A stretch of DNA of 64,000 bases from Gammaproteobacteria bacterium AqS3 (GCA_001750645.1 MEIF01000228.1:79322-143321), one strand, 5' to 3'. Positions 15,075 through 54,092 are shown, counted from the stretch's first letter. Notes: generated from the letters alone by a model not told the origin. Numbers and translations are program-made.

Positions 15075-15128
15075 TGAGCGGATTGCTTGACTCTGGGTGA
15101 TTTCTAGTAAAAAACAGAAGTCCGGGCT

Positions 15129-17006
15129 TCAAGCATCCAATATCTCAATTTGATCTTCTGAGAAATAACCTTTTTCTATAAGTTCCTCTCGCACTTTGCA
15201 TGGGTTGAGAGTAAACAGAATAATGACTAAATCTTTTTTAGCTCTGGAAAAGCTTACATAAGCCAGTTTTTTGGTTCGATCCTTTTGCTTTTCAGAAGAA
15301 CTTTCACCGGATGTTTCTGGTGACAGTAATTTAGCAAAATTGTAATTATTCCAATTTGTTTCAGTGTCATCATAGAAAACTAAAACTTTGTCATATTCTT
15401 CACCCTTCACACCATGCTGTGTGCTAAACGGAGTATTTTCATAAATAAAGTCGTAATACTTCTCCAATTGATCTGTCTTCATTTCAAAAAATCGATCAGC
15501 CAGCCATTCGCCCTTGTCTTTTTCATGTTCATTTTCGTCATATTCTTCAGACCTGACAGTTCGCTGAATCTGATCAGCAAGTCTGGTGGAAGCGGGAATT
15601 ATTTTGAGCTTGAGAGAGAGCTCAAGTATTTCTCTTAAGGAGCTCTTTTTCCATTCTTTAACTAGAGTCCTTACTGCTTTGCGCGCCTTTTTTCTGACGA
15701 AGCCAAGTGTTTCGTCAGAGCTTGGGCTTAAAAGAGGGCTGGATTCTTGAAGAATCTTAAAAACCTCCTGCTGATCATCTTTATCAAATGCTCGAACAAG
15801 TGGAATTAGCGGGTCAAAAAAGGGCCTTAATAAAAAATGCTCTCCTTTTTGGTAGTCATTTTTAGTTGACAGGCTGGCATAAGGCCCATTGAATAATTCA
15901 TGCAACTCCAGAAACCCCAATCGCCTTGCTATCATTTTATGAGTCAAAAATAAACTTTTAATTTTTGTGTCGTCTTGCCAATTCAGTTTGTCTAGTGCCG
16001 CATCAAACTTGGTGAGTGCGCGATCCATTTGATCACTGCTATAGGTTTTTCTATAGCCTTTTCCTTTTTCAGATTGCACCAGCATTACTTGAACACTGCC
16101 CTGGCAATTCTCTCCGGCTGGAACTTGCTGGACATCTTGTCTAAAGGAATTTAACAGCTGGATTACCGCTTTGGAGCAACGATAATTTTCCCGCTTGGTA
16201 ATTACTTTTAGGTGTGCACCTTCGCTAAAATTATCAGATCGCTCATCATAAATTTGCTGCATGGGATCCCCAAAATATCCAACGATGGGAGGTCCTTCTT
16301 TGGAAGTTAGTAGGTTTAGCGCACAGATAATGGAGGAATCAGTATCTTGTGCCTCATCGACAAAGATATAAGGGTATTTCTGTCCTATGATCTTTTGAAA
16401 GGCCGGAAATTTTTTGATCATCAGCCCTGAAAGCTCGATAACATCATCATGATCCAATTGCCCTTCTTCGTAATTTTTAGATGGGCTGTCATCATATTTG
16501 AATTTTTCGATTTCATTTATATTTTCCAGCACCTGTTCATATTTAGCGATTCTCTCTTGCGCATTTGTTGCGGCAGTACTTCTTCCATTGGCTCTGAGCT
16601 TGTTTTTCGCTATCTGGGATGGGATGATGCAATCTTTTATCATTGTTTTGATTTCTTGTTGAAAGCTTTTGATCTCTCCCCACAAAAATGAGTGAAGGGT
16701 AGAAACTATAAATAAATCATCGAAATTTAAACGTTTCAATATGACATTGACAGCTCTATTGGTGTATGTAATGCATACAACGCGCCGACCCTTTTTTCTA
16801 AGCAGAGCCCTTTTATGCTGTCGAATGTAATCTAGGGCATTAATCAAAGATCTGGTCTTGCCCGATCCTGCACCGGCAACCACAGCAAAGCTTTCATCCT
16901 TATCAATGCAATTTCGAATCTCCCTATCCGAATCCGAGAGAGCATTCCGTTTTGGTGACGTCAAGTCTTTCCTATTGTTCTTCAGCCCGTTGTTCGTTCT
17001 AGTCAT
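15129..17006 (-). CDS. gajB: UvrD/PcrA/Rep-like SF1 helicase, GajB-like (Gabija-like pair 1)
   Basis: Walker A AVVAGAGSGKTRSL, motif II FVDEAQD, C-terminal VSFSRAKKDL. 4-nt overlap with the upstream OLD-family gene. ~36% GC. Confidence 0.7.
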   Translation of the reverse strand: MTRTNNGLKNNRKDLTSPKRNALSDSDREIRNCIDKDESFAVVAGAGSGKTRSLINALDYIRQHKRALLRKKGRRVVCITYTNRAVNVILKRLNFDDLFIVSTLHSFLWGEIKSFQQEIKTMIKDCIIPSQIAKNKLRANGRSTAATNAQERIAKYEQVLENINEIEKFKYDDSPSKNYEEGQLDHDDVIELSGLMIKKFPAFQKIIGQKYPYIFVDEAQDTDSSIICALNLLTSKEGPPIVGYFGDPMQQIYDERSDNFSEGAHLKVITKRENYRCSKAVIQLLNSFRQDVQQVPAGENCQGSVQVMLVQSEKGKGYRKTYSSDQMDRALTKFDAALDKLNWQDDTKIKSLFLTHKMIARRLGFLELHELFNGPYASLSTKNDYQKGEHFLLRPFFDPLIPLVRAFDKDDQQEVFKILQESSPLLSPSSDETLGFVRKKARKAVRTLVKEWKKSSLREILELSLKLKIIPASTRLADQIQRTVRSEEYDENEHEKDKGEWLADRFFEMKTDQLEKYYDFIYENTPFSTQHGVKGEEYDKVLVFYDDTETNWNNYNFAKLLSPETSGESSSEKQKDRTKKLAYVSFSRAKKDLVIILFTLNPCKVREELIEKGYFSEDQIEILDA

Positions 17007-19060
17007 GACGAAGGATTATCCATCACAGACACTAACCATTGCAGGCCTTTGGATATATATTGAGGAGTAACCCATTCAACGTCGCTACTCATCACTTCAA
17101 GAGCAAATTCGGTTTTTTTGTAATTTGGTGACTTTACAGTTGAATAAACTTTTTTGTAATCCTCTGAAAAATTTTCGTCTTCACCAAGTTTTATAAAATT
17201 TTTAAGAAACGAATTTGCTCTAATCAAATTGATGTTGTGGTAAATAAAGGATTCTTCAAAAGTTCTGGGTATCATTTCTTGTTCCCCAGGATAGGGAGAT
17301 ATGGAGTTTTGAAAAGTGATCCCCAGGTCTTTCTGTTCCGGAGAGATATGCAGGTGGGGCTCTTCATTTGATATTTTCAGTAAATCTGAAATAGCTTTTT
17401 TGTTAACAAGAGATGTAATGGTTTTATTGCTGGAAACCGCACCAGATTGGCAGGCCATGCATGCTTTTCGATTCTTTCGAGGGTCGATTGAATCAAGGTC
17501 CGAAATAATGAGAGCTGGCAGGTTTAAGAATTTGATTAAAGGAACTAACTGATGTGCGTATGCCCCTCCTACTTCTAGAATTGTCAAATATTTGCTTGAA
17601 AGATCCCGAGCTTCTTTCTCGATAAATTTTGGCAAAAGCAGTTTCTCGGTGGCCCCTTCAACTAAGACTGCTCCATCTGAGAAAAACAAATCACAGTGAG
17701 TGAGTCTCAGATATTTTTTGAGAAAATTGACATTTTTCTCTGAATTTTCTTTGCTGGAAAAATCTTTTAGATCTAGAATTTTTGTGGCTATTTTTCGATC
17801 ATCAGATTCTTTTATTTCAGACCTGCATCTTTGAAAGTAACGAATGGAGGTGAAATCCCCCTCATCAATAATGTGGGGCGAGTGAGTGCTTATTAAAAGT
17901 TGAGGGTTGGATAATTCGTTATTTTCCGGGTTGCTGCCCCTCTCTATTACTTTTCTTATTTTTCGAATAAATGTTTGTTGCACCTGTGTGTGCAGGTGAA
18001 CTTCAGGCTCTTCGACGAAAATGAGGTGACAGGGCGGTTGAGTTTCTTCTATAGTCAGCCATTTTCTCTGGAAATGACTGATCTGGGCTGCTATATAAAT
18101 GAGGTTCTTGAAACCCAATCCATTGTAGGCTTCCGGCAGTTCATAGTCAGGATATTTGCTGTCTGCGTAAAGTAAAGTGGTACTTCCTTGAAGGGCGTCT
18201 TCTGGCTTCAGAGTTGACGATATTCTTAATTCTCTGTCATTTGCAGATGGAAAACCCAAGTCACTAATAATGTCAAATAATGGATTAAACTGCCTATCGT
18301 AATGTTCAGAAAGTTTTCTGTTGCTCTCATCAATGACTGCGAATGCTTCATCGTCAGCTTCTAATTTTTCCAGATTGGCTTTGTAATACTCATTTAGGAT
18401 GCTAGACAGTCTTGTGCTCCTCGCGGCTTCTTTGTCATCAATGTTCCTTTGAGCGTCGACAAAGTCGACCGCAATTAGGCTTCTTAAAGCTCGCCTTCCT
18501 TCTTCTCCTTCTAAGGCATGCGGCTTTGTCAAACTTTTGTTGAATGAATCACCAGTTTTTTCTAACTTGAAGTATTTCAGACTGAAGTGATTTTTCAGTC
18601 GATCTTTCTCAGATAAAAACCGTGATAGCTTTATATCCGGGCTGGATTTTCTACTGCTGTCAAATTCACTGATTAGTTCAGTTTGATCATTCACTGAAAA
18701 TGAAATTCTGATGCCTATTTCAGAATATTCTTTTTCTAGAGAGGTTAACAAGTTATAAACTTTTCCATATTCAGCTTCTGGATTGATGGAAAACCAAAGA
18801 TCCAAGTCGATCGATGGAATCTTGTTTTCTCTTTCTTTTTCCTCTTCGCCGATCTGATCTATTTTTTGCAATAGCGGTACTGAAAAATCATAAATTTGAA
18901 ATTCAGAGTTCCGCCCAGGAAGAAATAGCCTGAAAATCATGGATGCGGATGTTTTGCCGGAATTGTTCGGACCAACCAGTATGGTGTCCGTATCGCTGAG
19001 ATTGACCTCGACATTTTCCAGTCGCCTGAAATTTCTGACGCAGAATCTATCTAGTTTCAT
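17003..19060 (-). CDS. gajA: OLD-family ABC-type ATPase with C-terminal TOPRIM nuclease domain, GajA-like (Gabija-like pair 1)
   Basis: Walker A GPNNSGKTS. D-loop/Walker B LIFVEEPEVHLH. H-loop STHSPHII. TOPRIM-like VLVEGATEKLLL ... ALIISDLDSIDP. Immediately upstream of and coupled to the UvrD-like gene. Confidence 0.75.
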   Translation of the reverse strand: MKLDRFCVRNFRRLENVEVNLSDTDTILVGPNNSGKTSASMIFRLFLPGRNSEFQIYDFSVPLLQKIDQIGEEEKERENKIPSIDLDLWFSINPEAEYGKVYNLLTSLEKEYSEIGIRISFSVNDQTELISEFDSSRKSSPDIKLSRFLSEKDRLKNHFSLKYFKLEKTGDSFNKSLTKPHALEGEEGRRALRSLIAVDFVDAQRNIDDKEAARSTRLSSILNEYYKANLEKLEADDEAFAVIDESNRKLSEHYDRQFNPLFDIISDLGFPSANDRELRISSTLKPEDALQGSTTLLYADSKYPDYELPEAYNGLGFKNLIYIAAQISHFQRKWLTIEETQPPCHLIFVEEPEVHLHTQVQQTFIRKIRKVIERGSNPENNELSNPQLLISTHSPHIIDEGDFTSIRYFQRCRSEIKESDDRKIATKILDLKDFSSKENSEKNVNFLKKYLRLTHCDLFFSDGAVLVEGATEKLLLPKFIEKEARDLSSKYLTILEVGGAYAHQLVPLIKFLNLPALIISDLDSIDPRKNRKACMACQSGAVSSNKTITSLVNKKAISDLLKISNEEPHLHISPEQKDLGITFQNSISPYPGEQEMIPRTFEESFIYHNINLIRANSFLKNFIKLGEDENFSEDYKKVYSTVKSPNYKKTEFALEVMSSDVEWVTPQYISKGLQWLVSVMDNPSS

Positions 19061-19099
19061 ATTTTTGACTGTACTCGATTATTTCGCTCCAACAGCATT

Positions 19100-25881: not shown

Positions 25882-27714
25882 TCACCACCCGCAGGAGCGA
25901 CCGGCGTTCTGCTCATCGAGCCATATCTTCAGCGGTGCAAAGTACTCCTGAATGACGCTGGCATCCATGCTGCGCTGACCGGCGAGCACTTCCATGGTGT
26001 CCTGCCACGGACGGCTCAATCCCATCTCCAAGGCCTTGATCAGGCGCTCACCGGCCTCCTTGCTGTCGTAGACGGTGCACAGGTGCAGGGGGCCTTCGTA
26101 ACCGGCGCTCTTGCACAGCGCCTTGTGGAACTGGAACTGCTGAATGTGCGCCAGAAAGTAGCGCATGTAGGGCGTATTTCCGGGGATGTGGTATTTGGCG
26201 CCGGGGTCGAAGTTGTCCTCGGTGCGCTCCACCGGCGGGACGATGCCCTGGTACTTCAGGCGCAGATCCCACCAACCCTGATTCCATTTGCTCTCGGGCA
26301 ATTCACCGCTGAACACCTGCCAGCGCCACTTGTCGATCAGCAGACCGAACGGCAGAAAAGCGATCTTGTCCAGCGCCTGCCGCAGCAGCATGGAAATGTC
26401 GTCGCGCTGGCGGGGCGCCTCCTCGAGCATTCCGATCTTGACCAGGTAGTCGGGCGTGATCGACAGGGCAATGGTGTCGCCAATGGCCTCGTGAAAGCCG
26501 TCGTTGGCTCCGCCTCTCAGCAGCAGCGGCAGGTGTTTGTAGGCGCGCTGATAGAAGTTGTGGCCGAGCTCGTGGTGGATGGTTGAGAAATCCTCGGCAT
26601 CCGGCTTGATGCACATCTTGATGCGGATGTCATCCTGATCGTCCAGATTCCAGGCGCTCGCATGGCAGACCACGTCGCGATCACGCGGCTTGAGGAACAG
26701 GGAGCGATCCCAGAAAGTCTTGGGAAGGGGCTCAAACCCGAGGGAGGTGAAGAATTTTTCGGCGATTCGCACCATCTCGACCTCATCGGTATCCGCCAGC
26801 AGGGCGTCAAGGTCGTAGCCCGCCCCCACTCCGGAGCCGGCGGGCTTGATCAGGTCGTAGACATTGCCCCACTGCTGCGCCCACATGTTGCCCAGCAGAT
26901 GCGCCGGGATCGGCTTGTCCAGGGGGACCTGATCGTCGCCGTAGCGCTCGTTCAGCTTGGCGCGCACGTGGCAGTGCAGTGCGGTGTAGAACGGCTTGAC
27001 CTGATCCCAGAGACGATCCATCTCCTGGACGAAGGTATCGGGTCTCATGTCATACCCGCTGCGCCACAGATGCCCGATATCCTCATAGCCCAGATCGCGC
27101 GCACCCTCGTTGCCGAGCTGCACCAGCTCCTGGTATTCGCTCCGCATCGGCGGGGAGATGGTGCGCCAGCCCTTCCAGGCCTCCAGCAGATCGTTGTAAT
27201 TGCGGCTCTTGGCCATCACCTCGGACAGCTCGCCGAGATTGCGGCAGCTTTCGGTCCCGTCGGGCTGCTCTTGGCAGTAGGTGCCCTTGCCGTACGTCCC
27301 CTCCAGGCTGGCCTCGATTTCTGAGAGTCGCTTGCTCTTTTCCGGGTCGCCCGGCGGCGGCAGGGTCAGCCCGCCCTTGAGGATTTCCAGCTGCCGGCGA
27401 ACCTCCAGGGGCAGTGCGATGCCGTCAAAGTAGGGAGCCTTGACCGCGTACTCCTTGACGATCGACTTGACCTGCTCGGAGGTGTAGGCGCTCAGCTCCT
27501 GGCTGTCGTAGGTGATGAAGTTGGCGGCAATCCAGGCTGCGTGGGCAGCGGCCTTGCCGGGCCCCTCCAGATCTTTTTCAAGATCTTGGAGAAACTGCCT
27601 GGCCCCGGCCTCGTTCCGGGAATACTCCTCCTGAGAGCAGGAACCGAGCAGCAGTGCGACCGACCACAGGGCGGCCAGAGCGACCGCCTTGGAAAAACCC
27701 CTGATTTTGTCCAT
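25882..27714 (-). CDS. M2-family peptidyl-dipeptidase (bacterial ACE-like zinc metallopeptidase), lipoprotein
   Basis: HHELGH zinc motif plus downstream E. ~610 aa. Lipobox LLLGSC. Confidence 0.75.
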   Translation of the reverse strand: MDKIRGFSKAVALAALWSVALLLGSCSQEEYSRNEAGARQFLQDLEKDLEGPGKAAAHAAWIAANFITYDSQELSAYTSEQVKSIVKEYAVKAPYFDGIALPLEVRRQLEILKGGLTLPPPGDPEKSKRLSEIEASLEGTYGKGTYCQEQPDGTESCRNLGELSEVMAKSRNYNDLLEAWKGWRTISPPMRSEYQELVQLGNEGARDLGYEDIGHLWRSGYDMRPDTFVQEMDRLWDQVKPFYTALHCHVRAKLNERYGDDQVPLDKPIPAHLLGNMWAQQWGNVYDLIKPAGSGVGAGYDLDALLADTDEVEMVRIAEKFFTSLGFEPLPKTFWDRSLFLKPRDRDVVCHASAWNLDDQDDIRIKMCIKPDAEDFSTIHHELGHNFYQRAYKHLPLLLRGGANDGFHEAIGDTIALSITPDYLVKIGMLEEAPRQRDDISMLLRQALDKIAFLPFGLLIDKWRWQVFSGELPESKWNQGWWDLRLKYQGIVPPVERTEDNFDPGAKYHIPGNTPYMRYFLAHIQQFQFHKALCKSAGYEGPLHLCTVYDSKEAGERLIKALEMGLSRPWQDTMEVLAGQRSMDASVIQEYFAPLKIWLDEQNAGRSCGW

Positions 27715-27720
27715 TTGAAA

Positions 27721-29514
27721 TTAATTCCCCCCGTTGGCAACCCATTCATCGATCAAACTCTCGAGAATGTCCAGAGGCACGGCGCCGTTTTGCAGCACCA
27801 CCTCGTGAAACTTGCGGATGTCAAAATTTTCGCCCAGCTGCTCGCGCGCGCCCTCGCGCAGCTCGAGGATCTTCATCATTCCGATCTTGTAGGCGGTGGC
27901 CTGGCCGGGCATGACGATGTAGCGCTCGATGGATTTGGCTGAGTCGTTCTCGGGGTTCGGGGTGTTTTCAATCAGCCAGTCGATGGCCTGCTGGCGGGTC
28001 CACTTCTTGCTGTGCAGGCCGGTGTCCACCACCAGGCGGGCGCTGCGCCAGAGCTCCATGGCCAGTCGACCGAAATCCGAGTACGGATCCTGATACATGC
28101 CGACCTCCTTCGGCAGATATTCCGAATACAGCCCCCAGCCCTCGATGTAGGCCGTGAAGTTGCTCAGCTTGCGGAACTCGGGAACCCCCTCCAGCTCGGC
28201 TGCGACGGCCAGCTGCAGGTGGTGGCCGGGAACGCCCTCGTGATAGGCCAGCGCCTCCATCTGATATTTCGGCATGTCGGCCATGACGGACAGGTTGGCG
28301 TAGTAGATCCCCGGGCGCGATCCATCCGGGGCGGGGCGCGAGTAGAACGCCTTGCCGGCGGCCTTCTCGCGGAACTTCTCGACCCGCTTGACCTTCAGCT
28401 TGGAAGTCGGAATGGTGATGAACTGCTCGCCCAGCTTGGCCTCCATGGCATCGATGATCTTCTGGGTGTCGTCCAGATAAGCCTGCCTGCCGGCATCGGT
28501 TTCCGGGTAGTAGAACTGCTTGTCGCTGCGCATGAACTTGAAGAAGGCCTGCAGGTCGCCGCGGAAATTGACTTGCTTGCGCAGCTCGTCCATCTCGGCG
28601 TGAACGCGCTTGACATCCTCCAGACCCTTTTGGTGGATCTCATCCGCCGTCATGTCGGTTGTGGTGTAGCTGCGCAGCTGGAAGTTGTAGTACTCCTCGC
28701 CGTCGGGCAGCTTCCAGACCCCGTCGTCCTCGGTGGCCTTGCTTTCAAGGTCGCGCAGCACGCCGATCAGCTGTCGATAGCCGGCGCTGAACTGCAGCAG
28801 CAAGGCATTGGAGGCGCGCTCGATGAGTTTGTCAGTTTTGGCCTGGTCAAGGTTCAGCGCCTTCACCTTCTTGACGAAGTCGGCGTAGACGGCGTTGTCA
28901 AAATCGTCCTTCTTGTTCAGAGGCTTGCCCGACAGCACGCGCTCGCTGGTTCCGATCACCAGAGGGTAGACGAACTTGGGCGGGAAGATGCCCTCCTTCT
29001 GCTGTTTCTGCAGGAGCACATTGACCTGCTTGAGCAGCTTCTCGACTCCCCTGATGCGCTCGATGTAGGCGAGGGCATCCTCCTCGGAGTCGATTCTGTG
29101 GAAGTTGATCAGCAGGGCGGGTATCCCTGCCTGGACGCCGAACATCTGGTTGACCGGATAGGTGTGCAGGCGCCAGCGGTTGCGCTCGATCTGGCGCTCC
29201 AGCATGCGCTCGAACAGATCGTAGTTCAGGCGGTTTTCGGGGGTGAGCTGGTCATAGCTGAGACCGCGCAGCTCTTCTAACTGACGCTGAGCCATCCTGT
29301 AGCTCATATCCATGTCGCGCTCGGCGTAGCTGTCCCACTCCCCGTAGCGTTCCCTTCGTCCCAGAGCCGTCAGCGTCTCCGGCGAGGTCATCAGCTGCTC
29401 CTCGTAAGCCTTGGCGAAGAATTCCTCGGCTGATTCATTGGCGAGCTGATTCAGATACTCACAGCCCCCCAGCAGAAAAGCCATGAGAACGACAGTGAAT
29501 AGGCGATAGTGCAT
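27721..29514 (-). CDS. DUF885-family putative metallopeptidase lipoprotein
   Basis: HEGVPGHHLQ motif. Lipobox FLLGGC after the ATG at 29514. Confidence 0.6.
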   Translation of the reverse strand: MHYRLFTVVLMAFLLGGCEYLNQLANESAEEFFAKAYEEQLMTSPETLTALGRRERYGEWDSYAERDMDMSYRMAQRQLEELRGLSYDQLTPENRLNYDLFERMLERQIERNRWRLHTYPVNQMFGVQAGIPALLINFHRIDSEEDALAYIERIRGVEKLLKQVNVLLQKQQKEGIFPPKFVYPLVIGTSERVLSGKPLNKKDDFDNAVYADFVKKVKALNLDQAKTDKLIERASNALLLQFSAGYRQLIGVLRDLESKATEDDGVWKLPDGEEYYNFQLRSYTTTDMTADEIHQKGLEDVKRVHAEMDELRKQVNFRGDLQAFFKFMRSDKQFYYPETDAGRQAYLDDTQKIIDAMEAKLGEQFITIPTSKLKVKRVEKFREKAAGKAFYSRPAPDGSRPGIYYANLSVMADMPKYQMEALAYHEGVPGHHLQLAVAAELEGVPEFRKLSNFTAYIEGWGLYSEYLPKEVGMYQDPYSDFGRLAMELWRSARLVVDTGLHSKKWTRQQAIDWLIENTPNPENDSAKSIERYIVMPGQATAYKIGMMKILELREGAREQLGENFDIRKFHEVVLQNGAVPLDILESLIDEWVANGGN

Positions 29515-29702
29515 AACCGACCCTCTTTGGGTGGAAATTAAGCCGAGCATTGTAATGGCAACTCAGCCGAATATTCATAGCGGGCGGGTTGAATGGGTTC
29601 GCCGCCAAGCAACGGACTTTTATTGGGATGAGTGGATGGTTGACCCAATCCGCCCTTTTCAGTTGAGTTGGGGTGCATATTGGCCCACGCAGAGGCCTGT
29701 TC

Positions 29703-31640
29703 TTATGCAATGTCTACCTCTTCCTCGGCAAACCAGTCATTTCTCAAGACGTAATCTTTCACCTTGTCGGGGTTTTCAGCATAAGCCACCAAAGCCAGGC
29801 TGCTTTTGCTGCGGCTGCAGGCAACATAGAAAAGCCGCCGGGTTCGATCAATTGAGCTGTCTCTGCCCTCGTCAAGGTTGCTTATGTCAGTCCGCGAATA
29901 CGCCCTGTCGCCGAGCAGCTTGCCGTAGCTGAACATGAAGCCGCGCGACTCGGAATCGTCCATGATCACCATGACACGCTCAAACTCCAAGCCCTTCACG
30001 CCTTGGTGGGTGTCAAACGCTGTCAGCCCGTCAATATATTTCTGATAGATGTCGATCTCGGAGAATGGAGCCTCCAAGAAGGAAAGCACGGCTGCTGTGC
30101 GTTCATCAAGCGGATCGGCTTGCATGTCTTCCTGGGAGGAGTCCGCAGAGCTGTCTAAGACCGCGTGGGCAGACAGCAAGACCTCTGGGATCTCGAACAA
30201 TTCGTGTTCAAGAATGCAGCGCAAAACGTCGGCGCATGTCGGTGTGCCTTTGCCGCAAAGCGACATCAGGGCATCAACGCCGGCCTGAGCCTGCATCATC
30301 AATTGCTTTGGGTCGGAAGCCTCTTTGAGAGCGTCTCGAGTCAACAGCGGAGACGACTGCCGGATCAGCCTGAAAACTGTGAATCGGTCGTTTTTCTGTT
30401 GGGCCTGAACAAGCGGAAAAGCCAATTGAGTGAAGAACCGAAGCAGGGGGAGGCTGCCATCGAGCAGTCCGGTGCGCCAGCCATCGATTTTGTAGAGAGG
30501 CTTGAAGACCGCTTCAAACTTCAGGCGCCTTGCAGCCATGTGATGCTCAAGCGTGAGAATCTTGCACTGATCTCGATTGCCCCAGCCGGCATCACCGGAA
30601 TATTCAGCCATTTGGCTTCGGATATCCTCTTCGATTGCCGTATGGTCTGTTACATCGGCGCGTCGGATAAACAGCCTCACCTTCCCATTAAGTGCATCCG
30701 ATCTGGCTTCCTGAGTGTGCTCATCCGCTGTCTCCCGAATCTTATTGATGAGTCGCACAACCCGCTTGGGGCAGCGATGATTGAGTCTTTTGGAGGGCCT
30801 TCCCCAACGCTCGGGAAGCTCCTCTTCGATATGCTCTTTGCCGTCCTGATAAATTCGCTGCATGACATCGCCGATCAGTCCCAGGCAAAACCGGTCTGAA
30901 TGCCTTTGATCAACCGTGAAGAGGGCGCCAATCAGATGGCGGTTGGTGTCCTGACTTTCGTCAATTAGCAGGATGGGAAATCGACCAACCAGTATCCAGC
31001 CCATGAGGGGTTTCTGAGATAGAAAATCTGCGCAGATTTGAATGACTTCTGCATGGTTGAGTGCATTGGATTCGGAGTTTTCACCGTTGGGGCTGTAGAT
31101 GAAAGACTGAATGGCATCAAGCCGCTCTAACTGCTTTCCTTTGGATTTGATTTTGGCTTGCCGTTCTATCGATGCCTTGGTTCTAGAGCGGCCTTTATCT
31201 TCCTTTATTTGGAGTTCATCTATTTCCTCTTGCAAATTTTTGCGGAGCCATTCTCTAATGTCGTGATCAAAACCCTTAATCAGCTCCCAGGCAAAGCTGT
31301 GAATGGTCGCTACGTAGAAGAGAGGATGGGAATCTGTCCGCCGAATGATTTCATCACGGGCGGCATTGGTATAGGTGATCACACCGACACGATGGCCGTG
31401 CAATGTCAGTTCGCGTTCATATTTTGAGCGAATATGATCCAGTGAATTGACCAAGGTCCGCGTCTTTCCTGAGCCGGCACCTGCAAAAAGAAAGAAGCTT
31501 CTCGGCTCTTTGGGATTGAGATAGCCGGCGATTTCCTCATCTACGGGGTCGTCTAAGGTGCTGTTTACAGTCAGGGACGGACTAATGGTCATGGCCTTTT
31601 TGAGGCTTTGTATCTTCAGCTGGCTTTGGATTAACGACAC
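29703..31640 (-). CDS. gajB: UvrD-like SF1 helicase, GajB-like (Gabija-like pair 2); start may be the internal Met near 31592
   Basis: Walker A FLFAGAGSGKTRTL, motif II LLIDESQD, C-terminal VACSRSKSSL. Paralogous to the 15129..17006 product. Confidence 0.7.
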   Translation of the reverse strand: MSLIQSQLKIQSLKKAMTISPSLTVNSTLDDPVDEEIAGYLNPKEPRSFFLFAGAGSGKTRTLVNSLDHIRSKYERELTLHGHRVGVITYTNAARDEIIRRTDSHPLFYVATIHSFAWELIKGFDHDIREWLRKNLQEEIDELQIKEDKGRSRTKASIERQAKIKSKGKQLERLDAIQSFIYSPNGENSESNALNHAEVIQICADFLSQKPLMGWILVGRFPILLIDESQDTNRHLIGALFTVDQRHSDRFCLGLIGDVMQRIYQDGKEHIEEELPERWGRPSKRLNHRCPKRVVRLINKIRETADEHTQEARSDALNGKVRLFIRRADVTDHTAIEEDIRSQMAEYSGDAGWGNRDQCKILTLEHHMAARRLKFEAVFKPLYKIDGWRTGLLDGSLPLLRFFTQLAFPLVQAQQKNDRFTVFRLIRQSSPLLTRDALKEASDPKQLMMQAQAGVDALMSLCGKGTPTCADVLRCILEHELFEIPEVLLSAHAVLDSSADSSQEDMQADPLDERTAAVLSFLEAPFSEIDIYQKYIDGLTAFDTHQGVKGLEFERVMVIMDDSESRGFMFSYGKLLGDRAYSRTDISNLDEGRDSSIDRTRRLFYVACSRSKSSLALVAYAENPDKVKDYVLRNDWFAEEEVDIA

Positions 31641-33900
31641 CCAAACTCTCTTGCTGGTTATTTAGTTGCTTAATCAGCCACCGTAGCCCTTCACGAATAT
31701 AAGAAGGCGGCTGTAATTTTATGGGTTCTGAGATATATAGAAGATCAAGTGCGAATTCTGCTTTTCCTCCAGCTTCCAATGCTTGAAATATTTGGTTGCG
31801 CAATGCTTCTAGATCAGAGCTTGTATCAATTGCTGTCTTAAATTTCTCCCCTAGGCTGTTACTTGGAAGATGATTTTGAAAGAGTTTTAGGTTCTCCATT
31901 ATCAATGCGTCTTCAAAAGTGTTGCACAAGGCCTCTTCGCGCTTTCCTTTAAATTCCACGCTGACTGGCCGTTGGTATGCGACGCGAATGGAAAAATGCT
32001 GGCTTTCATATTTTTTACTCTTTAACTTTTCATCAAGATCCAAGAGGACATCCAGTTCTTCAACACCGGGACACCACGACTTGAGGGTGTAGTTGCGTGT
32101 TTTAAGGCTGCTATCGCGCCTTGGTATTTCTTTTGCTCGGTCTGTGTTAGAAGCATCAAGATCGGTGATGATGAGAGTTGTCAGGCCCAGGTGTTCAACC
32201 AAATCTTTGAACCTATGAGCATGACTTCCGCCAATCTCAAGCCATGAGATGTAGCACTGCTGCAAAGCATTGAGTTCTGGCTGGTGTTCGACAAAGAACG
32301 GAATCAAGATTCTTTCAGCCGGGCCTTCCACAAATACCGCCGCATCGGCAAAAAGCAGGTCACAGTGAGTCACCTTGATATATCGAGTGACAAAGCGCTT
32401 GGTCTCATCTTCTGCCCCGAATATATTACTCAGATTGATGACGCATGAGAGGGGAACAGATGCTGCATCGATGGGAAGACGGCGAAAATATCGCAGGTCA
32501 TCAAATTCACATTCATGGGCGATATGGCTGGAGTGCGTGCTCACGATCACCTGGGTTTTCAATTCCTCTGATTGCCCTAATTCACTGTGGCTTCGAAGAA
32601 ATTTATAGGCCTGTCTGATAAATACCTGTTGAACCTGTGTGTGAAGGTGGGCTTCAGGTTCTTCAATGAGCACAAGATGCAAAGGCGGAATATGCACATC
32701 AGATTCTTCCTCTGATTGAATATTGGCTTTGCCAACGCGCATCCGCGCATCGCGAAAGCTCATTAACCGGAAAATCATGGATATAAGGTTTTGATAACCC
32801 AGACCGTTGGAGTCTTCAGGGAGGCTAAGTTCAACTGTGTTCCCGTCATCTTGTGTGGTTACAGCATATTGGACGGCAGTGGGATGATTAAGACCATCAA
32901 CCGGCTTGATGCGTGTGGAAATTTTGAGCTTTGGATCGGTGATGCCCGGATACCCCATTTTTTCCACTTCTTGGATGGCTGCTGAGAATCCATTCATAAG
33001 TTTCTCATCAAAAGTCTCTTGAGCCGTTTTGATGGCAGCCAACGCTCTGATGTCTTGTTCGCTTGAATGTTTAAGCGGGTCGAGGTGCCTATTCCAATAG
33101 CGCTGAAGTTGATGGGACATGCGCCGACTGGAGCTTGATCCGGCAAGTGTGCCGTCATCATCGGGATCGCCGGACTCAGTGGTTTGGCCAAAACCCCGCT
33201 GGGCGCCGATCTCATCAATTTGGATGAGACCTTTGAGGGGGTTGCTGCCGATGGGCTCTGCGTTATCTGGCAGCGGTTGAGGCTGTGACTCGCCACGATC
33301 AGCCTTGCTGAATTTTGCGGGATCAAGAATGTACGCCTCAATGGAGAAGAGGTCGCTCAATCTGCGCTTTAGAAAATCGGTAAGTGAAAGGGGCCAAAGC
33401 AAATCTGATAGATCACCTTCAGTTCGTTTCTTGGTCGTTTCCAAAGAATGCGATTGGGCACGAGCGACTACATAGGCCTTTTGGAGTTTGGATTCGTCTT
33501 TCGGTTGAAGCCGAAAGCGAACGCCAAGCCGTCCGCCATCCCAATCAAGCGTCGGGATTATCTTTTGGACTAAATGAGCCTCTTCCTTGTCGGCGTGAAG
33601 CCAGACATCCAGAAAGGGCAGGATGGGGGCCCAATCGGGCTCAGGAAGAGGCTGATCTTCTGTATTCGCCCTCTCCCAGGCAGCCCCCATTTCGTCAATT
33701 TTCGGCCAATTGGACAGCGTGAAGTCATCGAGAGAAAAAGGATTTCTGCCTTTTTCGATAAGAAAGTACTGAAGGGCGCGCATTGCCGAAGTCTTTCCGC
33801 TGTTATTCGCCCCGACAAAAACTGTGGTCTCCCCAGAAAATTCGATCCGCACTGATTTGAGCTTTCTAAAATTTGCAATCTCAATACATTCAATGTGCAT
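31582..33900 (-). CDS. gajA: OLD-family ATPase + TOPRIM nuclease, GajA-like (Gabija-like pair 2)
   Basis: Start chosen at ATG 33900 (AGGGAA RBS; aligns with the N-terminus of pair 1). GANNSGKTS Walker A, LVLIEEPEAHLHTQVQQVFIR, STHSSHIAHE, TOPRIM VFVEGPAERILIP ... LIITDLD. Confidence 0.75.
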   Translation of the reverse strand: MHIECIEIANFRKLKSVRIEFSGETTVFVGANNSGKTSAMRALQYFLIEKGRNPFSLDDFTLSNWPKIDEMGAAWERANTEDQPLPEPDWAPILPFLDVWLHADKEEAHLVQKIIPTLDWDGGRLGVRFRLQPKDESKLQKAYVVARAQSHSLETTKKRTEGDLSDLLWPLSLTDFLKRRLSDLFSIEAYILDPAKFSKADRGESQPQPLPDNAEPIGSNPLKGLIQIDEIGAQRGFGQTTESGDPDDDGTLAGSSSSRRMSHQLQRYWNRHLDPLKHSSEQDIRALAAIKTAQETFDEKLMNGFSAAIQEVEKMGYPGITDPKLKISTRIKPVDGLNHPTAVQYAVTTQDDGNTVELSLPEDSNGLGYQNLISMIFRLMSFRDARMRVGKANIQSEEESDVHIPPLHLVLIEEPEAHLHTQVQQVFIRQAYKFLRSHSELGQSEELKTQVIVSTHSSHIAHECEFDDLRYFRRLPIDAASVPLSCVINLSNIFGAEDETKRFVTRYIKVTHCDLLFADAAVFVEGPAERILIPFFVEHQPELNALQQCYISWLEIGGSHAHRFKDLVEHLGLTTLIITDLDASNTDRAKEIPRRDSSLKTRNYTLKSWCPGVEELDVLLDLDEKLKSKKYESQHFSIRVAYQRPVSVEFKGKREEALCNTFEDALIMENLKLFQNHLPSNSLGEKFKTAIDTSSDLEALRNQIFQALEAGGKAEFALDLLYISEPIKLQPPSYIREGLRWLIKQLNNQQESLGVVNPKPAEDTKPQKGHDH

Positions 33901-34045
33901 TGTGAAATCATTCCCTGATGACAGTTTCTGTTGAACTGCCGGCACCTGGTTGATAGGGGGGTTGACAGGAAGACGCAAAAACGAGCGAAGCCATGGCTGT
34001 CAGGATGTGAATACGCAGCATTTCATTAGCCCTCCTCAATCCAGC

Positions 34046-34122
34046 TGGCGCGCCCGGCAGGATTCGAACCTGCGACCAACGGCTTCGGAAGCCGCTACTC
34101 TATCCAGCTGAGCTACGGGCGC
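34046..34122 (-). tRNA. tRNA-Arg (anticodon CCG)
   Basis: Reverse complement folds as a canonical cloverleaf: acceptor GCGCCCG/CGGGCGC, D-arm GCTCAGCTGGATAGAGT, anticodon loop TTCCGAA, T-arm GCAGGTTCGAATCCTGC, 3' GCCA. Confidence 0.85.
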
Positions 34123-34136
34123 GTGTGCGGGGGATT

Positions 34137-34901
34137 TTAAGACGACTCGGAAGCTTCGGACGATTCATCCGCTTCCGATGCCTCGGCCTCCCCCCGTTCA
34201 CGTCGGATGAGCGCGAGCAGATGATCGGCGATCCTGAGGATGCGCTCGATCGGCATGGAGGAGTTGATCAGATACCGCTCGCCGATCACCAGGGATGGGG
34301 TCGCCGGGATGCGCATCGCCTTGGCGATGCTGCGCGCCTCCCGCACCTGCTGCGTCACGAAGAACGAATCCAGCACCTGATTGATGTCGCCCTCGGAGGC
34401 GCCCTGCCGCTTCAGAAAGGCGCGCACCGCACCGCCGTCGGCGAGGAAGTTGCGCTCCTGGTGAATGGCTCGGTAGACCGCCGCCGAGCCGGCTTCCCGG
34501 TCAATGCCCAGGCGCTGCATGGCAAAGTAGAGGCGCGCGTGATTTTCGTGCTGAGCGCTGAACACGGCCGGCGTGTGCAGCCATTCGATCTGGTCCTGAT
34601 GACGCTCGGCCCAAACCGCGAAGAAGGGATCGGTTCGATAGCAGGCCGCGCATCCGTACCAGAAGAACAGGCGCGCCGGGATGCGGTCGGTGTCGCCGGC
34701 GTATGACTCCGTGATGCTGGCATCGAGCTCAAAATAGTCGCGACCGGCGCGATACTCGCTGCGCTCGCCGGAGCCGCTGCCCGAGGAGGACGTGGCGGCG
34801 GACAGAAGCTGCGGTCCGAAGGTCAGCCCCGCCCAGAACAGCGCAGCCGCTCCCGCAGCGATGACGGCGGCGCTGATCAGGCGGCGCTGAACCGCTTTCA
34901 C
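34137..34901 (-). CDS. dsbA: DsbA-family thiol:disulfide oxidoreductase with acidic C-terminal tail
   Basis: Signal peptide and WYGCAACY CxxC motif in a thioredoxin fold. Confidence 0.65.
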
Positions 34902-50552: not shown

Positions 50553-50690
50553 CGAATGGCGGTATGCGGCTGAAGTTTGATGGGTGCGGACTTGAAATGT
50601 TGAAAGGGCATACCATATAAGGCCCAGATGAGTTGGTCGGGGCCTGGGCTTGTTCAGGTTCCGCAGTTTTGAATCATGGAGGACGCTGTT

Positions 50691-51257
50691 ATGTCTGATG
50701 ACGGTACCAAGGGCAAATTTACTGCCCGCATTAAATGTGATGATCGCGAATGCCGCGTGGCGTGCGACACACAAAACCCCGCTGTTCGAGAAATTTTGGA
50801 TAAAGCCGCAGAGAGTGACCTTCTGCGGCCGTCGGACAATATCGACGACTTTGAGCTGGTGGACGAGCAGAATGGCAGACAGATTGACGGCGATGAAGTT
50901 GACATAGCTGAAAATCCCAATTTGGTTCTTCGGCCCAAAAAGCCTGAGCTGCCGGATTCAGAAAAACCGGAAGAGACAGACAAATCGAAGCCGCCCGCCC
51001 CTCCCGTCCCGCCCTTCCAAGGGCCTTACAAATTTCAAGTCAACGGCCAGGAAATGGAAAGCGATCAGGAAAAATTGAAGGCATCGGAGATTATCCGGCT
51101 GGCTCAGGACAGGGGCTTTGCCAGTTCGGGCAAGCCGGAAGAATTCGTCCTGCAGGTGTCGGGCGAGGATAAGGAATTCAAATACGATGAAACTGTCGAT
51201 TTAAGCCGGGATAATGCTTTTCTGATCATTCCGAGAAAGCCCACCCCTGTTGCATAG
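50691..51257 (+). CDS. Tandem beta-grasp (ubiquitin-like) protein: two ~75-aa Ubl-like modules joined by a K/P/E-rich linker; no C-terminal Gly-Gly
   Basis: GGAGG RBS 8 nt before ATG 50691. Secondary-structure-like periodicity of two beta-grasp modules (KFTARIKCDD...LVLRP and YKFQVNGQEM...FLIIPRK). First gene of a coupled E2 / JAB-E1 cassette. Fold assignment is an inference. Confidence 0.4.
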   Translation: MSDDGTKGKFTARIKCDDRECRVACDTQNPAVREILDKAAESDLLRPSDNIDDFELVDEQNGRQIDGDEVDIAENPNLVLRPKKPELPDSEKPEETDKSKPPAPPVPPFQGPYKFQVNGQEMESDQEKLKASEIIRLAQDRGFASSGKPEEFVLQVSGEDKEFKYDETVDLSRDNAFLIIPRKPTPVA

Positions 51258-51649
51258 TGATGGACGAGTGCCTGGAGCGAATCTTTGAGGAACTGAAGGG
51301 TCTGGGCTATGACCCTTATTACGCGGACTGGCCGCAGGGGAAAAAGGTGGTCATCAAATACAGGATTCTCACGGGCAAATACGCCAATCAAACGGTCTTG
51401 CTGGGGGTCTCAAACCCGGATGGCCCCTATCCTGAATACCCTCCGCATTGGATTCACATTAGCCCGCTGCACGACGATGGATTGGGAGGGCCAGTAGAAA
51501 TCTATTCAAGTGAAAATGAAAAGGGGCAGACCTGTGAATGGGGCGCATTGAGCCGCCCTCCTCGCGATATTTGGGATCAGCTGCCGGAAAAAAGCATGAA
51601 GTCATTTCTTAATGAACATGTTGGCCGCTTTTGCAAAGCCCTGAAGTGA
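51257..51649 (+). CDS. Prokaryotic E2 (UBC-like) conjugating enzyme candidate
   Basis: 130 aa. HPN-like segment YPPHWIHISP followed by a conserved Cys (GQTCEWG). Start overlaps the upstream stop. Overlaps the downstream E1 gene by 19 nt. Confidence 0.5.
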   Translation: MMDECLERIFEELKGLGYDPYYADWPQGKKVVIKYRILTGKYANQTVLLGVSNPDGPYPEYPPHWIHISPLHDDGLGGPVEIYSSENEKGQTCEWGALSRPPRDIWDQLPEKSMKSFLNEHVGRFCKALK

Positions 51650-53124
51650 ATATATACGAGGCAGTCTTTTTGGGCGAGACCAATGAAGAAATATGCGCTC
51701 ACTTATTGCAGCACTTCAACAAGGGGGAGTATCAGGAGGATCTTTGCTTTGCCCTTTGGCGCCCCAGCACGGGTCAAAATCGCTACAGCGCTTTGATTTA
51801 CAAAGCCATTCTCCCCCATGAGGGTGAAAGAAACCTCCATGGAAATGTGGAGTTCAATCCAAATTATTTGTCCCGCGCCATTAACCTGGCCTGCCGGGAG
51901 GGTGCAGGACTTGCCTTTATGCACAGCCATCCGTCCGATGGCTGGCAGGCCATGAGCCAGCCGGATGTCGTCGCTGAAAAGGAGGCGATTTTTTATCCGG
52001 CACAGGCCACACAATTGCCGTTGCTGGGGTTAACGGTGGGAACCGACGGTTATTGGAGCGCTCGATTTTGGATCAGGGAGGGCAGGAAAAATCAGATTCA
52101 TTGGTGTCAAAAGGTCCGGGTGGTCGGCGAGAAAAAATATCAGCTCTACCATAACGATGCCCTTGCACCCGCTCCGAAGAGAAGAAATATCCTGCGGAGA
52201 ACTTATGACACCTGGGGGGCAGAAAAGCAGAACGATATTGCGCGTCTCAAGATCGGCGTGGTGGGCTTGGGCAGTGTCGGCTGCATTGTTGCCGAGGCGC
52301 TCGCCCGAGGCGGCATTCAGGAAATTGTTCTGATCGATCCGGATCGGGTGGAGGAGCACAATCTGGATCGGCTGCTGTATGGAACGCAGAGCGAGATCGG
52401 CCAATATAAAGTGGACGTGGCTGAGAGGCGCCTCCGGCTCAATTCCACCGCAGAGAGGGTTGCCGTTCAAAAAATCCCGCTCTCCCTCCGCGATGAGCGG
52501 GCTTATCTGGCGGCGCTGGACTGCGATCTCCTGCTGAGCTGTGTCGACCGTCCGGTTGCCAGGGATGTGCTTAATTTCATTGCCTTTGCGCATTTGATAC
52601 CGGTGATTGACGGGGGCATTGCCATTGAGCATGCGGAAAATCTGGATTCATTCTTTGCCCATTGGAGGGCGCACCTTGTCACCCCATACCACCAGTGCAT
52701 GCGCTGCAATGGCCAGTACACGACCAGTGACGTGTCTGTGGAATTGGATGGATCGCTGGACAACCCTGCCTATGTCAGCAGTCTGCCGCCCGAGGAGCGG
52801 GGCCGCAACCAGAATGTTTTTCCGTTCAGCCTGCATGTTGCAGCCATGGAAGCCGGCGCCATGTTTCGGTACTTGGTGGCGCCTGATTGGTGGCCTCCGG
52901 TTCAGCAGCAGGACTATGATTTTTTAAGGGGTACGACAACCATTCAGAACGACAAGTGCAGGCCACATTGCGTATTTCAAAATGAGCGAATTGCCCGGGG
53001 CGATGCAATCAACCCCAATCTCAAAAGCCTGATTATTCGGACAGGTGAACCAGACAGAGACGAACGGAAAAGCTGGCTCCGCGGTTTATTGTCTAAATTC
53101 ACCAGAGCTTTCGGTAAGGAATAG
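51631..53124 (+). CDS. JAB/MPN metalloprotease domain fused to E1-like (ThiF/MoeB) adenylyltransferase (TTG start)
   Basis: N-terminal JAMM motif E...HSHPS...S..D (FMHSHPSDGWQAMSQPD). C-terminal Rossmann KIGVVGLGSVGCIVAEALARGGIQEIVLIDPDRVEEHNLDR. Cys pairs CMRCNG ... CRPHC. Confidence 0.75.
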   Translation: MQSPEVNIYEAVFLGETNEEICAHLLQHFNKGEYQEDLCFALWRPSTGQNRYSALIYKAILPHEGERNLHGNVEFNPNYLSRAINLACREGAGLAFMHSHPSDGWQAMSQPDVVAEKEAIFYPAQATQLPLLGLTVGTDGYWSARFWIREGRKNQIHWCQKVRVVGEKKYQLYHNDALAPAPKRRNILRRTYDTWGAEKQNDIARLKIGVVGLGSVGCIVAEALARGGIQEIVLIDPDRVEEHNLDRLLYGTQSEIGQYKVDVAERRLRLNSTAERVAVQKIPLSLRDERAYLAALDCDLLLSCVDRPVARDVLNFIAFAHLIPVIDGGIAIEHAENLDSFFAHWRAHLVTPYHQCMRCNGQYTTSDVSVELDGSLDNPAYVSSLPPEERGRNQNVFPFSLHVAAMEAGAMFRYLVAPDWWPPVQQQDYDFLRGTTTIQNDKCRPHCVFQNERIARGDAINPNLKSLIIRTGEPDRDERKSWLRGLLSKFTRAFGKE

Positions 53125-54034: not shown

Positions 54035-54092
54035 CCCAATAAAGCAAAATCAACGGCGGATTATACCGGGCATATTCGCCGCTTTGGCTGAC

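Follow-up and report, generated by a model that had tools for sequence, protein, structure and literature searches.

The window considered here is a stretch of 64,000 nucleotides (nt) from the genome of Gammaproteobacteria bacterium AqS3 (GCA_001750645.1, MEIF01000228.1:79322-143321), and the genes in question are gajA2 (positions 31582-33900, minus strand) and gajB2 (29703-31592, minus strand), which lie between a gene encoding a DUF885 lipoprotein and the 3' end of a tRNA-Arg(CCG) gene. It is very probable that these genes, together referred to as pair 2, comprise an intact, horizontally acquired Gabija defence system that occupies a minimal two-gene islet 3' of the tRNA gene. GajA2 is predicted to be a class 2 OLD-family nuclease of 772 residues, with an N-terminal ATP-binding cassette (ABC)-type ATPase that contains a large insertion and, at the C-terminus, a TOPRIM domain, while GajB2 is predicted to represent a UvrD/PcrA/Rep-like superfamily 1 (SF1) helicase of 629 residues. 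An initial annotation of the window had described a second Gabija-like OLD/UvrD pair at this site. This description was upheld by matches to PADLOC and Pfam models and by the predicted fold of GajA2, with each feature being found at the position originally given.

According to a preprint (bioRxiv 10.64898/2026.08.05.743132), the sponge Amphimedon queenslandica has three dominant gammaproteobacterial symbionts that are extracellular and vertically inherited, and AqS3 is one of these. At NCBI, gajA2 carries no more specific a label than 'AAA family ATPase', and gajB2 none beyond 'ATP-dependent helicase', such that the assignment presented here adds a defence annotation missing from the public record.

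Protein assignments and gene starts

Assignment of GajA2 to the Gabija nucleases draws on profile, motif and structural comparisons. Pfam profiles AAA_15 (residues 1-461; E=3.7e-51) and OLD-like_TOPRIM (residues 516-582; E=5.5e-16) were matched, as was the PADLOC GajA model PDLC00093 across residues 1-753 (E=1.2e-281; 935 bits). The ATPase portion of the protein includes a Walker A motif (GANNSGKT, residues 30-37, with K36), a Walker B motif and D-loop (EEPEAHLH, residues 413-420, within LVLIEEPEAHLH, residues 409-420) and an H-loop (STHS, residues 454-457), while E525, G557/G558 and D580-L-D582 are found in the TOPRIM domain. When GajA2 was compared with the solved Bacillus cereus GajA using phmmer (E=5e-10), E525 fell on E379, G557/G558 on G409, and D580/D582 on D432/D434 of the DND motif, namely, those residues that form the TOPRIM active site of the B. 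cereus enzyme (Antine et al., PMC10781630). The Walker A, Walker B and STHS motifs and the TOPRIM residues are, moreover, invariant in an alignment of 26 sequences.

An AlphaFold2 (AF2) model of GajA2 was obtained with a predicted local distance difference test (pLDDT) score of 72 and a predicted template modelling (pTM) score of 0.66, with low confidence being limited to residues 236-279, residues 321-367 and the C-terminal tail. When this predicted structure was used as query in a Foldseek search of the PDB, GajA structures were returned as the top matches (8x5i_B, E=8e-17; 8u7i_A; 8sm3_A), followed by the OLD protein of retron-Eco8 (E ~1e-13) and that of Thermus scotoductus (E=5e-13).

In the case of GajB2, Pfam profiles UvrD-helicase (E=1.3e-16) and AAA_19 (E=7e-11) were matched, as was, over nearly its full length, the PADLOC GajB model PDLC00111 (E=4.8e-245). 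SF1 motifs I (GAGSGKT, 38), Ia (TYTNAA, 73), II (DESQD, 211), III (GDVMQRIY, 241) and VI (YVACSRS, 589) were all identified, and a five-sequence GajB2 profile matched PcrA, UvrD and Rep in the PDB, with E-values of 4e-16 to 1e-10. The initial annotation had staked its reading on the two proteins being assigned to OLD and UvrD profiles, and the AAA_15, OLD-like_TOPRIM, UvrD-helicase and AAA_19 matches bear this out.

The gajA2 open reading frame (ORF) spans positions 31582-33978 when read from a TTG codon, with the ATG at 33900 yielding the 772-residue OLD/TOPRIM protein. This start, chosen already in the initial annotation, agrees both with NCBI entry MBF2754395.1 and with the N-terminal sequence MxIExxEIANFRKL that is common to 25 GajA2 homologues in the alignment. 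For the helicase, the initial annotation had given a length of 645 residues and an overlap with gajA2 of up to 59 nt. Such an ORF does exist (29703-31640, from a GTG at 31640, overlapping gajA2 by 59 nt), but the GajB2 homologues all begin at residues matching the ATG at 31592, with M1 and T2 being invariant, and NCBI also calls a protein of 629 residues. Because the N-termini of the homologues match this ATG, gajB2 likely encodes 629 residues, and the real overlap of the two genes is most likely 11 nt (ATGACCATTAG), rather than 59 nt. The location of the gajB2 ATG 11 nt inside the end of gajA2 is consistent with translational coupling.

The spacer between the gajA2 start and the tRNA 3' end (33901-34045; 145 nt; GC content 0.50) presumably holds the promoter of the two genes. 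Terminator and Rfam scans of the locus returned nothing besides the tRNA.

Several observations speak against pair 2 being a functional Gabija system. GajA2 is ~190 residues longer than is B. cereus GajA, with the two low-confidence insertions (residues 236-279 and 321-367) being found in the ATPase half of the protein. In the comparison of the two sequences, B. cereus GajA was aligned with confidence to residues 408-654 of GajA2 alone, with the N-terminal region containing Walker A matching weakly (domain E ~1.4). The solved B. cereus GajB chain was not retrieved when the PDB was searched with the GajB2 profile, even at E<=10, and an AF2 model of GajB2 generated from a two-sequence alignment (pLDDT 41.9) was too poor for fold comparison. 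Function is, furthermore, carried over from systems in which GajA is only ~12-16% identical to GajA2 in structural alignment. Finally, no sigma-70 consensus sites were detected in the 145-nt upstream spacer, as compared to 3.9 expected from shuffles, in what was a crude consensus test in which the deficit mainly reflects a composition unlike that of Escherichia coli.

The last of these points would also be in line with pair 2 being a silent or decaying relic, with ORFs that remain open yet are unexpressed or inactive in a vertically inherited symbiont experiencing relaxed selection. Vertical inheritance of the host, as stated in the preprint (bioRxiv 10.64898/2026.08.05.743132), would favour such decay, and another defence gene of the window, encoding an MmeI-like type IIG enzyme, is split into two ORFs. 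Still, both pair 2 ORFs are full length when compared to their homologues and all of the catalytic residues that are invariant in the family have been kept, while the promoter deficit comes from a crude scan and is largely compositional. Pair 2 is, as such, unlikely to be a relic.

Composition and borders of the islet

Across the 29-34 kb region of the window, GC content is 0.45-0.56, as opposed to ~0.65 in the DNA flanking the tRNA and 0.61 in that towards DUF885, with the pair 2 genes themselves showing values of 0.47-0.52. GC content at third codon positions (GC3) is 0.471 in gajA2 and 0.592 in gajB2, as compared to 0.75-0.88 (mean 0.82; standard deviation 0.04) in nine native genes, including those encoding the DUF885 protein (0.836) and an M2 peptidase (0.827). 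At 6-9 standard deviations under the native genes, the difference is far beyond chance, and it is because GC3 is so far below native values that pair 2 is considered as being of foreign origin. The compositional edges of the island therefore sit where the initial annotation had placed them, in the two spacers that border the genes, namely, the 145-nt spacer described above and a 188-nt spacer between the gajB2 stop and the DUF885 start (29515-29702; GC content 0.53), within which no tRNA-derived repeat is found. The distal boundary, defined by composition alone, lies within 29515-29702.

The DUF885 gene (27721-29514, minus strand) flanks the system and is not part of it. Its product matches Pfam DUF885 (E=1.4e-181) and carries an N-terminal lipobox (MHYRLFTVVLMAFLLGGC); together with GC3, these traits agree with the earlier description of a native DUF885 lipoprotein neighbour. 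In a query of genome contigs with DUF885, the best match showed 58% identity (Microbulbifer) and no matched locus had a neighbouring tRNA-Arg, while a search of 5.8 billion proteins revealed no DUF885 relative of more than 59% identity. Given that no orthologue exceeds 59% identity, it is composition alone that shows the DUF885 gene to belong to the core genome.

On its other side, the islet faces tRNA-Arg(CCG) (34046-34122, minus strand), the single tRNA of the window according to ARAGORN. The gene is intact, is 77 nt long, encodes its CCA and scored 68.5 bits with Rfam RF00005. As the tRNA is found on the minus strand, its 3' end is directed towards the island. Only two genes, gajA2 and gajB2, separate the tRNA from the DUF885 gene. 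The DsbA gene (34137-34901) flanks the tRNA on its far side.

This border was compared with the corresponding region of a relative, an ENA metagenome contig (ERZ25073842; L082) that is 89% identical to the window over 10.9 kb on the SecDF-to-DsbA side and that contains the same tRNA-Arg (77/77 positions identical). Similarity stops entirely at window position 34043, 3 nt beyond the CCA, placing the proximal island boundary at about this position. The initial annotation had proposed comparing the tRNA-Arg locus in related genomes, and this was achieved in part: homology indeed breaks at the tRNA end, but in one relative only, with a contig that ends 54 nt past the tRNA in a 54-nt tail having no match in the window. 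From the alignment, one can say that the locus appears to be variable from the tRNA end onward. The earlier idea of an island bordering tRNA-Arg(CCG) thus gains support, as regards its foreign nature and its start at the tRNA 3' end, both from GC content and GC3 and from the break seen in L082.

In L082 (ctg43567_2x_l), the genes encoding DsbA, QueA, inositol monophosphatase and SpoU are each split in two. The name of the contig indicates 2x coverage, and part of the divergence may reflect sequencing error. As most of the differences are substitutions, L082 appears to represent a distinct lineage.

A DsbA-based search for relatives identified L082 as the only close one. When 16 window proteins were considered in terms of clusters formed at 90% identity, members came only from a second AqS3 assembly; a 30-residue 'member' of the cluster containing GajA1, the nuclease of the other Gabija pair in the window (pair 1), proved to be from an unrelated contig and was discarded. 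No close relative was found in JGI metagenomes using either a lineage-specific DsbA-tRNA DNA pattern or the DsbA protein.

Homologous cassettes and the origin of the islet

In the 5.8-billion-protein search, the clade containing GajA2 proved large, with 6,178 of the scored candidates matching at E<=1e-30, and with no relative showing more than 66% identity to GajA2. Relatives with a named source, sharing 55-64% identity, belong to Rhodothalassium, Yunchengibacter, Parasphingorhabdus, Agrobacterium, Rhizobium and Burkholderia. Those named among the closest relatives are mostly Alpha- and Betaproteobacteria, while the host considered here is a gammaproteobacterium. In each of 10 distinct homologous loci, a gene encoding a GajA of ~770 residues is followed by one encoding a helicase of 628-630 residues, with the two overlapping or lying no more than 5 nt apart. 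Neighbouring genes in such loci encode tyrosine and serine recombinases, relaxases and type IV coupling proteins, transposases, MmeI-type enzymes, HipA, McrB-like AAA_5 proteins, and restriction-modification and toxin-antitoxin components. A GajA2 relative is, moreover, found on 363 plasmids in PLSDB, mostly conjugative, being full length on 90 of these, and full-length relatives are encoded by ~12 proviral contigs in IMG/VR. Besides plasmids and prophages, cassettes with 55-66% identity also occur in conjugative or integrative (ICE-like) islands.

These distributions bear on whether pair 2 could instead be a native nuclease-helicase module serving in DNA repair or housekeeping, rather than in mobile defence. 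Roles in repair are known for UvrD-family helicases as well as for TOPRIM nucleases, and the names assigned by NCBI are only those of a generic ATPase and helicase. Against this, the GC3 of pair 2 is 6-9 standard deviations under that of native genes, no orthologue of more than 66% identity is found, homologues reside on plasmids and amid restriction-modification, toxin-antitoxin, recombinase and relaxase genes, and Gabija-specific PADLOC models are matched at full length. A native repair module is, as such, highly improbable.

In Rhodothalassium and Yunchengibacter (L168 2611-6930, L169 2578-6897, L171 366-4329), which hold the closest named GajA relatives, a conserved three-gene block lies upstream of gajA, with which it overlaps by 11 nt. 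The block encodes a protein of unknown function of 229-350 residues, a protein of ~685 residues for which faint DEAD/ResIII matches were obtained in Rhodothalassium only, and a T5orf172/MUG113 protein of ~400 residues. Together with gajAB, the block, which has no counterpart in the window, may form a composite defence operon of larger size.

A link to tRNA genes was also noted in several of the homologous loci. In two near-identical metagenome contigs (L090 and L091; GajA 64% identical), the island begins at a tRNA-Arg(CCG), which is followed at once by a gene encoding a large serine recombinase, next by one for an MmeI-like enzyme and then by gajA-gajB, found ~6.5 kb downstream of the tRNA and oriented relative to it as in the window. 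In L087 (A. tumefaciens GCA_017877215.1), an orphan 32-nt tRNA 3' fragment (GGTCACAGGTTCGAATCCTGTCGGGTGCGCCA; 15420-15451) lies 3.2 kb beyond gajB. This fragment corresponds to the T-arm, acceptor strand and CCA of a tRNA without the 5' half, is 91% identical to the window tRNA, and resembles the attR-type end of an island; the 18 kb covered did not include its partner tRNA. In L171, a tRNA-Met and an HTH_17 gene are found downstream of the cassette. As a general property of the clade, however, tRNA-Arg adjacency was rejected, being seen in one of 10 distinct non-viral loci (plus the single orphan fragment and the single tRNA-Met) and in none of 22 proviral loci. A tRNA linkage is therefore a recurrent, rather than a general, trait of the GajA2 clade.

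In L090 and L091, the 536-residue serine recombinase ORF (Resolvase and Zn_ribbon_recom domains; L090 1362-2972, L091 60-1670) reads, at the edge of the island, through the entire tRNA-Arg(CCG) gene found on the opposite strand (L090 1365-1441, L091 63-139), and the attachment (att) site in these contigs may lie inside the 3' end of the recombinase gene.

Most simply, the pair 2 islet would represent the stripped cargo of an integrative element that entered at, or recombined beside, the tRNA, with the recombinase and distal att repeat of that element having since been lost. In common with tRNA-targeted islands, the islet begins within 3 nt of a tRNA 3' end, is of foreign composition and carries defence cargo, yet differs from them in containing two genes only, with neither a recombinase nor a distal repeat of the tRNA 3' end. 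This and other findings detract from such an origin. No integrase domain was detected with Pfam within 10 kb of either side of the DsbA gene. Positions 27001-34000 contain no exact copy of any word of at least 10 nt taken from the tRNA plus 3' flank (34001-34122). Outside of gajAB2, no DNA similarity to any homologous island was found, including in those regions upstream of gajA. The L082 contig reaches only 54 nt beyond the tRNA, and ARAGORN detected a single tRNA in the 22 proviral loci (tRNA-Ser, in L107) and no tRNA-Arg, rendering the association anecdotal. When 20-40-mers of the tRNA 3' end were compared with the whole window, no match was obtained with up to 6 mismatches, nor did blastn-short or a repeat-family search reveal any tRNA-derived repeat. 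The initial annotation had likewise noted the lack of both an integrase and a direct repeat of the tRNA end, and the repeat search it had called for left that statement unchanged.

At the tRNA 3' junction, a 16-nt segment (34032-34047; CTCCTCAATCCAGCTG) is imperfectly repeated in direct orientation, with 14 of 16 positions identical, in the D-arm region (34095-34110; CTACTCTATCCAGCTG). This repeat was rejected as an att site, as it lies on the wrong side of the tRNA, and is probably due to chance.

It is quite possible that pair 2 is a real Gabija system for which the position beside the tRNA is incidental, having been inserted into a permissive hotspot by illegitimate or homology-facilitated recombination without a tRNA-targeting integrase, for instance, with flanking core genes serving as anchors in transformation or transduction. 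Such a route would leave the tRNA intact and would call for neither integrase nor att repeat, as is observed, and the one tRNA-Ser found among the 22 proviral loci points the same way. Pair 1, moreover, is equally bare and has no tRNA nearby, indicating that bare cassettes can enter this genome with no mobility genes in evidence. What an incidental position does not readily accommodate is that the similarity to L082 ends 3 nt past the CCA, exactly where tRNA-targeted islands begin, that the recombinase island of L090/L091 holds a homologous cassette, likewise oriented, beside a tRNA of the same species, and that an orphan tRNA 3' fragment marks the end of another homologous island (L087).

Known systems, pair 1 and other low-GC patches

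Among characterised systems, the Gabija system of B. cereus VD045 (8SM3, 8U7I, 8X5I, 8JQ9) presents the same gajA-gajB order as does pair 2, as well as an ABC ATPase and TOPRIM domain with the same E/G/DxD residues and Walker motifs, and a helicase sharing SF1 motifs, including the DExx box. The proteins differ in length, with GajA comprising 772 residues in pair 2 and 578 in B. cereus, and GajB2 comprising 629 residues, as compared to ~494 in B. cereus GajB. They also differ in the low GajA identity and in the two long insertions of GajA2 considered above.

Pair 2 belongs with the proteobacterial long-form GajA and GajB proteins (PDLC00093/PDLC00095 and PDLC00111/PDLC00143, respectively), which are ~770 and 629 residues long, with the GajA proteins showing 55-66% identity to GajA2 over their full length. 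Examples from Rhodothalassium salexigens, Yunchengibacter salinarum, Agrobacterium, Rhizobium and Burkholderia bear the annotation 'AAA family ATPase' or 'OLD family endonuclease'. Whereas these relatives are found inside larger mobile islands or plasmids with recombinases, relaxases, MmeI-type enzymes and toxin-antitoxin genes, pair 2 stands alone by its tRNA. We know of no member of this long-form clade that has been characterised biochemically.

Other OLD proteins are more distant. BpOLD (6NK8) and XccOLD (6NJV), reportedly described by Schiltz and colleagues in 2019 as class 2 OLD proteins and non-specific nucleases with ATPase activity, were matched by GajA2 weakly (E=1.9e-6 and 1e-4) and across no more of the sequence than ~90 residues of the TOPRIM core, placing them in a different subclade. 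The ATPase and TOPRIM fold family is also shared with the class 1 P2 Old and T. scotoductus OLD proteins, the class 3 OLD of retron-Eco8 and AriA of PARIS, with the PADLOC AriA model being matched by the ATPase half of GajA2 only (E=1.6e-54). A class 1 or class 3 OLD or PARIS identity was rejected, as no reverse transcriptase, non-coding RNA or AriB is present and a UvrD-like helicase is adjacent. Such adjacency defines GajA2 as a class 2 OLD protein (PMC10568477).

A gammaproteobacterial Gabija operon carried by an integrative island is known from Pseudomonas aeruginosa PA14 (PAPI-1; Hong et al. 2025, PMC12407980), in which motif II of GajB reads DESQ, as compared to DESQD in GajB2. Defence by the PA14 system requires ATPase, TOPRIM and DExx residues, and was reported to be non-abortive and to attack linear DNA ends lacking RecBCD (PMC12407980).

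By analogy with the B. cereus and P. aeruginosa systems, as described in the relevant reports (PMC10781630, PMC10568477, PMC12407980), GajA2 and GajB2 would form a hetero-oligomer (4:4 in B. cereus) in which the GajA TOPRIM domain would cut invading DNA by two-metal catalysis. Nucleotide bound to the ABC ATPase of GajA would restrain the nuclease at normal nucleoside triphosphate levels, while GajB would engage DNA ends and hydrolyse (d)ATP/(d)GTP. The outcome could be nucleotide depletion with abortive infection, or the direct destruction of linear phage DNA with ends unprotected by RecBCD.

Gabija is among the commonest of defence systems and has been reported in >15% of genomes (PMC10781630). 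Pair 2 opens no new mechanism and is an ordinary new member of this very common family. It offers, nonetheless, a clean case of a defence cassette cut down to its two essential genes beside a tRNA, and the locus could be of modest use in the study of island decay and hotspot reuse.

Gabija pair 1 (15129-19060, minus strand; GC content 0.39) consists of gajA1 (17003-19060; 685 residues) and gajB1 (15129-17006; 625 residues). It is a bare insertion (15075-19099) even tighter than pair 2, fitted between genes for a carbonic anhydrase and a ClpB-like protein with spacers of only 54 and 39 nt, and with no tRNA, integrase or repeat nearby. Motif strings are conserved between the two pairs, as had been noted earlier, with EEPEAHLHTQVQQVFIR and STHSSHI in pair 2 corresponding to EEPEVHLHTQVQQTFIR and STHSPHI in pair 1.

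Both pairs had initially been taken as paralogues of the same subfamily, a description that holds only loosely. In support of this, PDLC00093 is the best PADLOC GajA model for each (935 bits with GajA2; 674 bits with GajA1), and GajA1 and GajA2 are far closer to each other (E=2e-86) than either is to B. cereus GajA (E ~1e-10 for pair 2; ~1e-5 for pair 1). Identity between the pairs is, however, 29% for both proteins (GajB, E=5e-66), GajA1 is an outlier (31%) in the GajA2 alignment, where other relatives show 55-67%, GajB2 scores best on PDLC00111 but GajB1 on PDLC00143, and GC3 is 0.37 in pair 1, as opposed to 0.47/0.59 in pair 2. At 29% identity and with different GC content, the pairs stem from independent acquisitions, not from a recent duplication; judged by sequence comparison, they are best regarded as independently acquired xenologues within a broad long-GajA group.

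It may be, albeit tentatively and with a rather modest likelihood, that the two deeply diverged pairs, from different donors, are non-redundant and, separately, that the pair 2 cassette marks serine-recombinase islands specific for tRNA-Arg(CCG). Were this so, the symbiont would keep both pairs, with each covering phages or anti-Gabija proteins missed by the other, and a family of tRNA-Arg(CCG) serine-recombinase islands would shuttle this Gabija clade between marine Proteobacteria. The anti-Gabija protein Gad1 wraps the GajA dimerisation surface; the long-form GajA, with its ~190 extra residues, could sense a trigger other than that of the B. cereus enzyme or escape inhibitors such as Gad1.

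Further patches of low GC content were noted in the window. At 59365-62146 (plus strand; GC content ~0.52), an MmeI-like type IIG enzyme is encoded by two overlapping ORFs (59365-60930 and 60698-62146) that cover positions 2-515 and 512-909, respectively, of the 912-position PADLOC model PDLC03598. Either a frameshift has turned the gene into a pseudogene or the split stems from an error of assembly. Homologous Gabija cassettes are flanked by MmeI-type genes in L086, L087, L090 and L169.

A second such patch (50676-55259; GC content 0.43-0.56) includes a gene encoding a ThiF/E1-like protein (51631-53124; Pfam ThiF, E=6.5e-30; PADLOC 'E1-E2', E=5e-16), preceded by a small ORF with a weak Multi_ubiq match (E=9e-4). 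Neither Pfam nor PADLOC returned a match for two further ORFs on the minus strand (53099-54034 and 54093-55259). The region may be a ubiquitin-like (Bil-type) defence module.

Defence genes are enriched in sponge symbionts, and Gabija was reportedly noted earlier in sponge holobiont metagenomes. The presence in 64 kb of AqS3 DNA of two independently acquired Gabija pairs, a probable ubiquitin-like module and a broken type IIG enzyme fits this enrichment.

Lastly, an isolated gene at 5069-6139 (plus strand) shows a GC content of 0.47 amid surroundings of 0.65. Its product of 356 residues includes a C-terminal phosphoribosyltransferase domain (E=7e-13) and has no PADLOC match, and the gene may represent another small foreign insertion.

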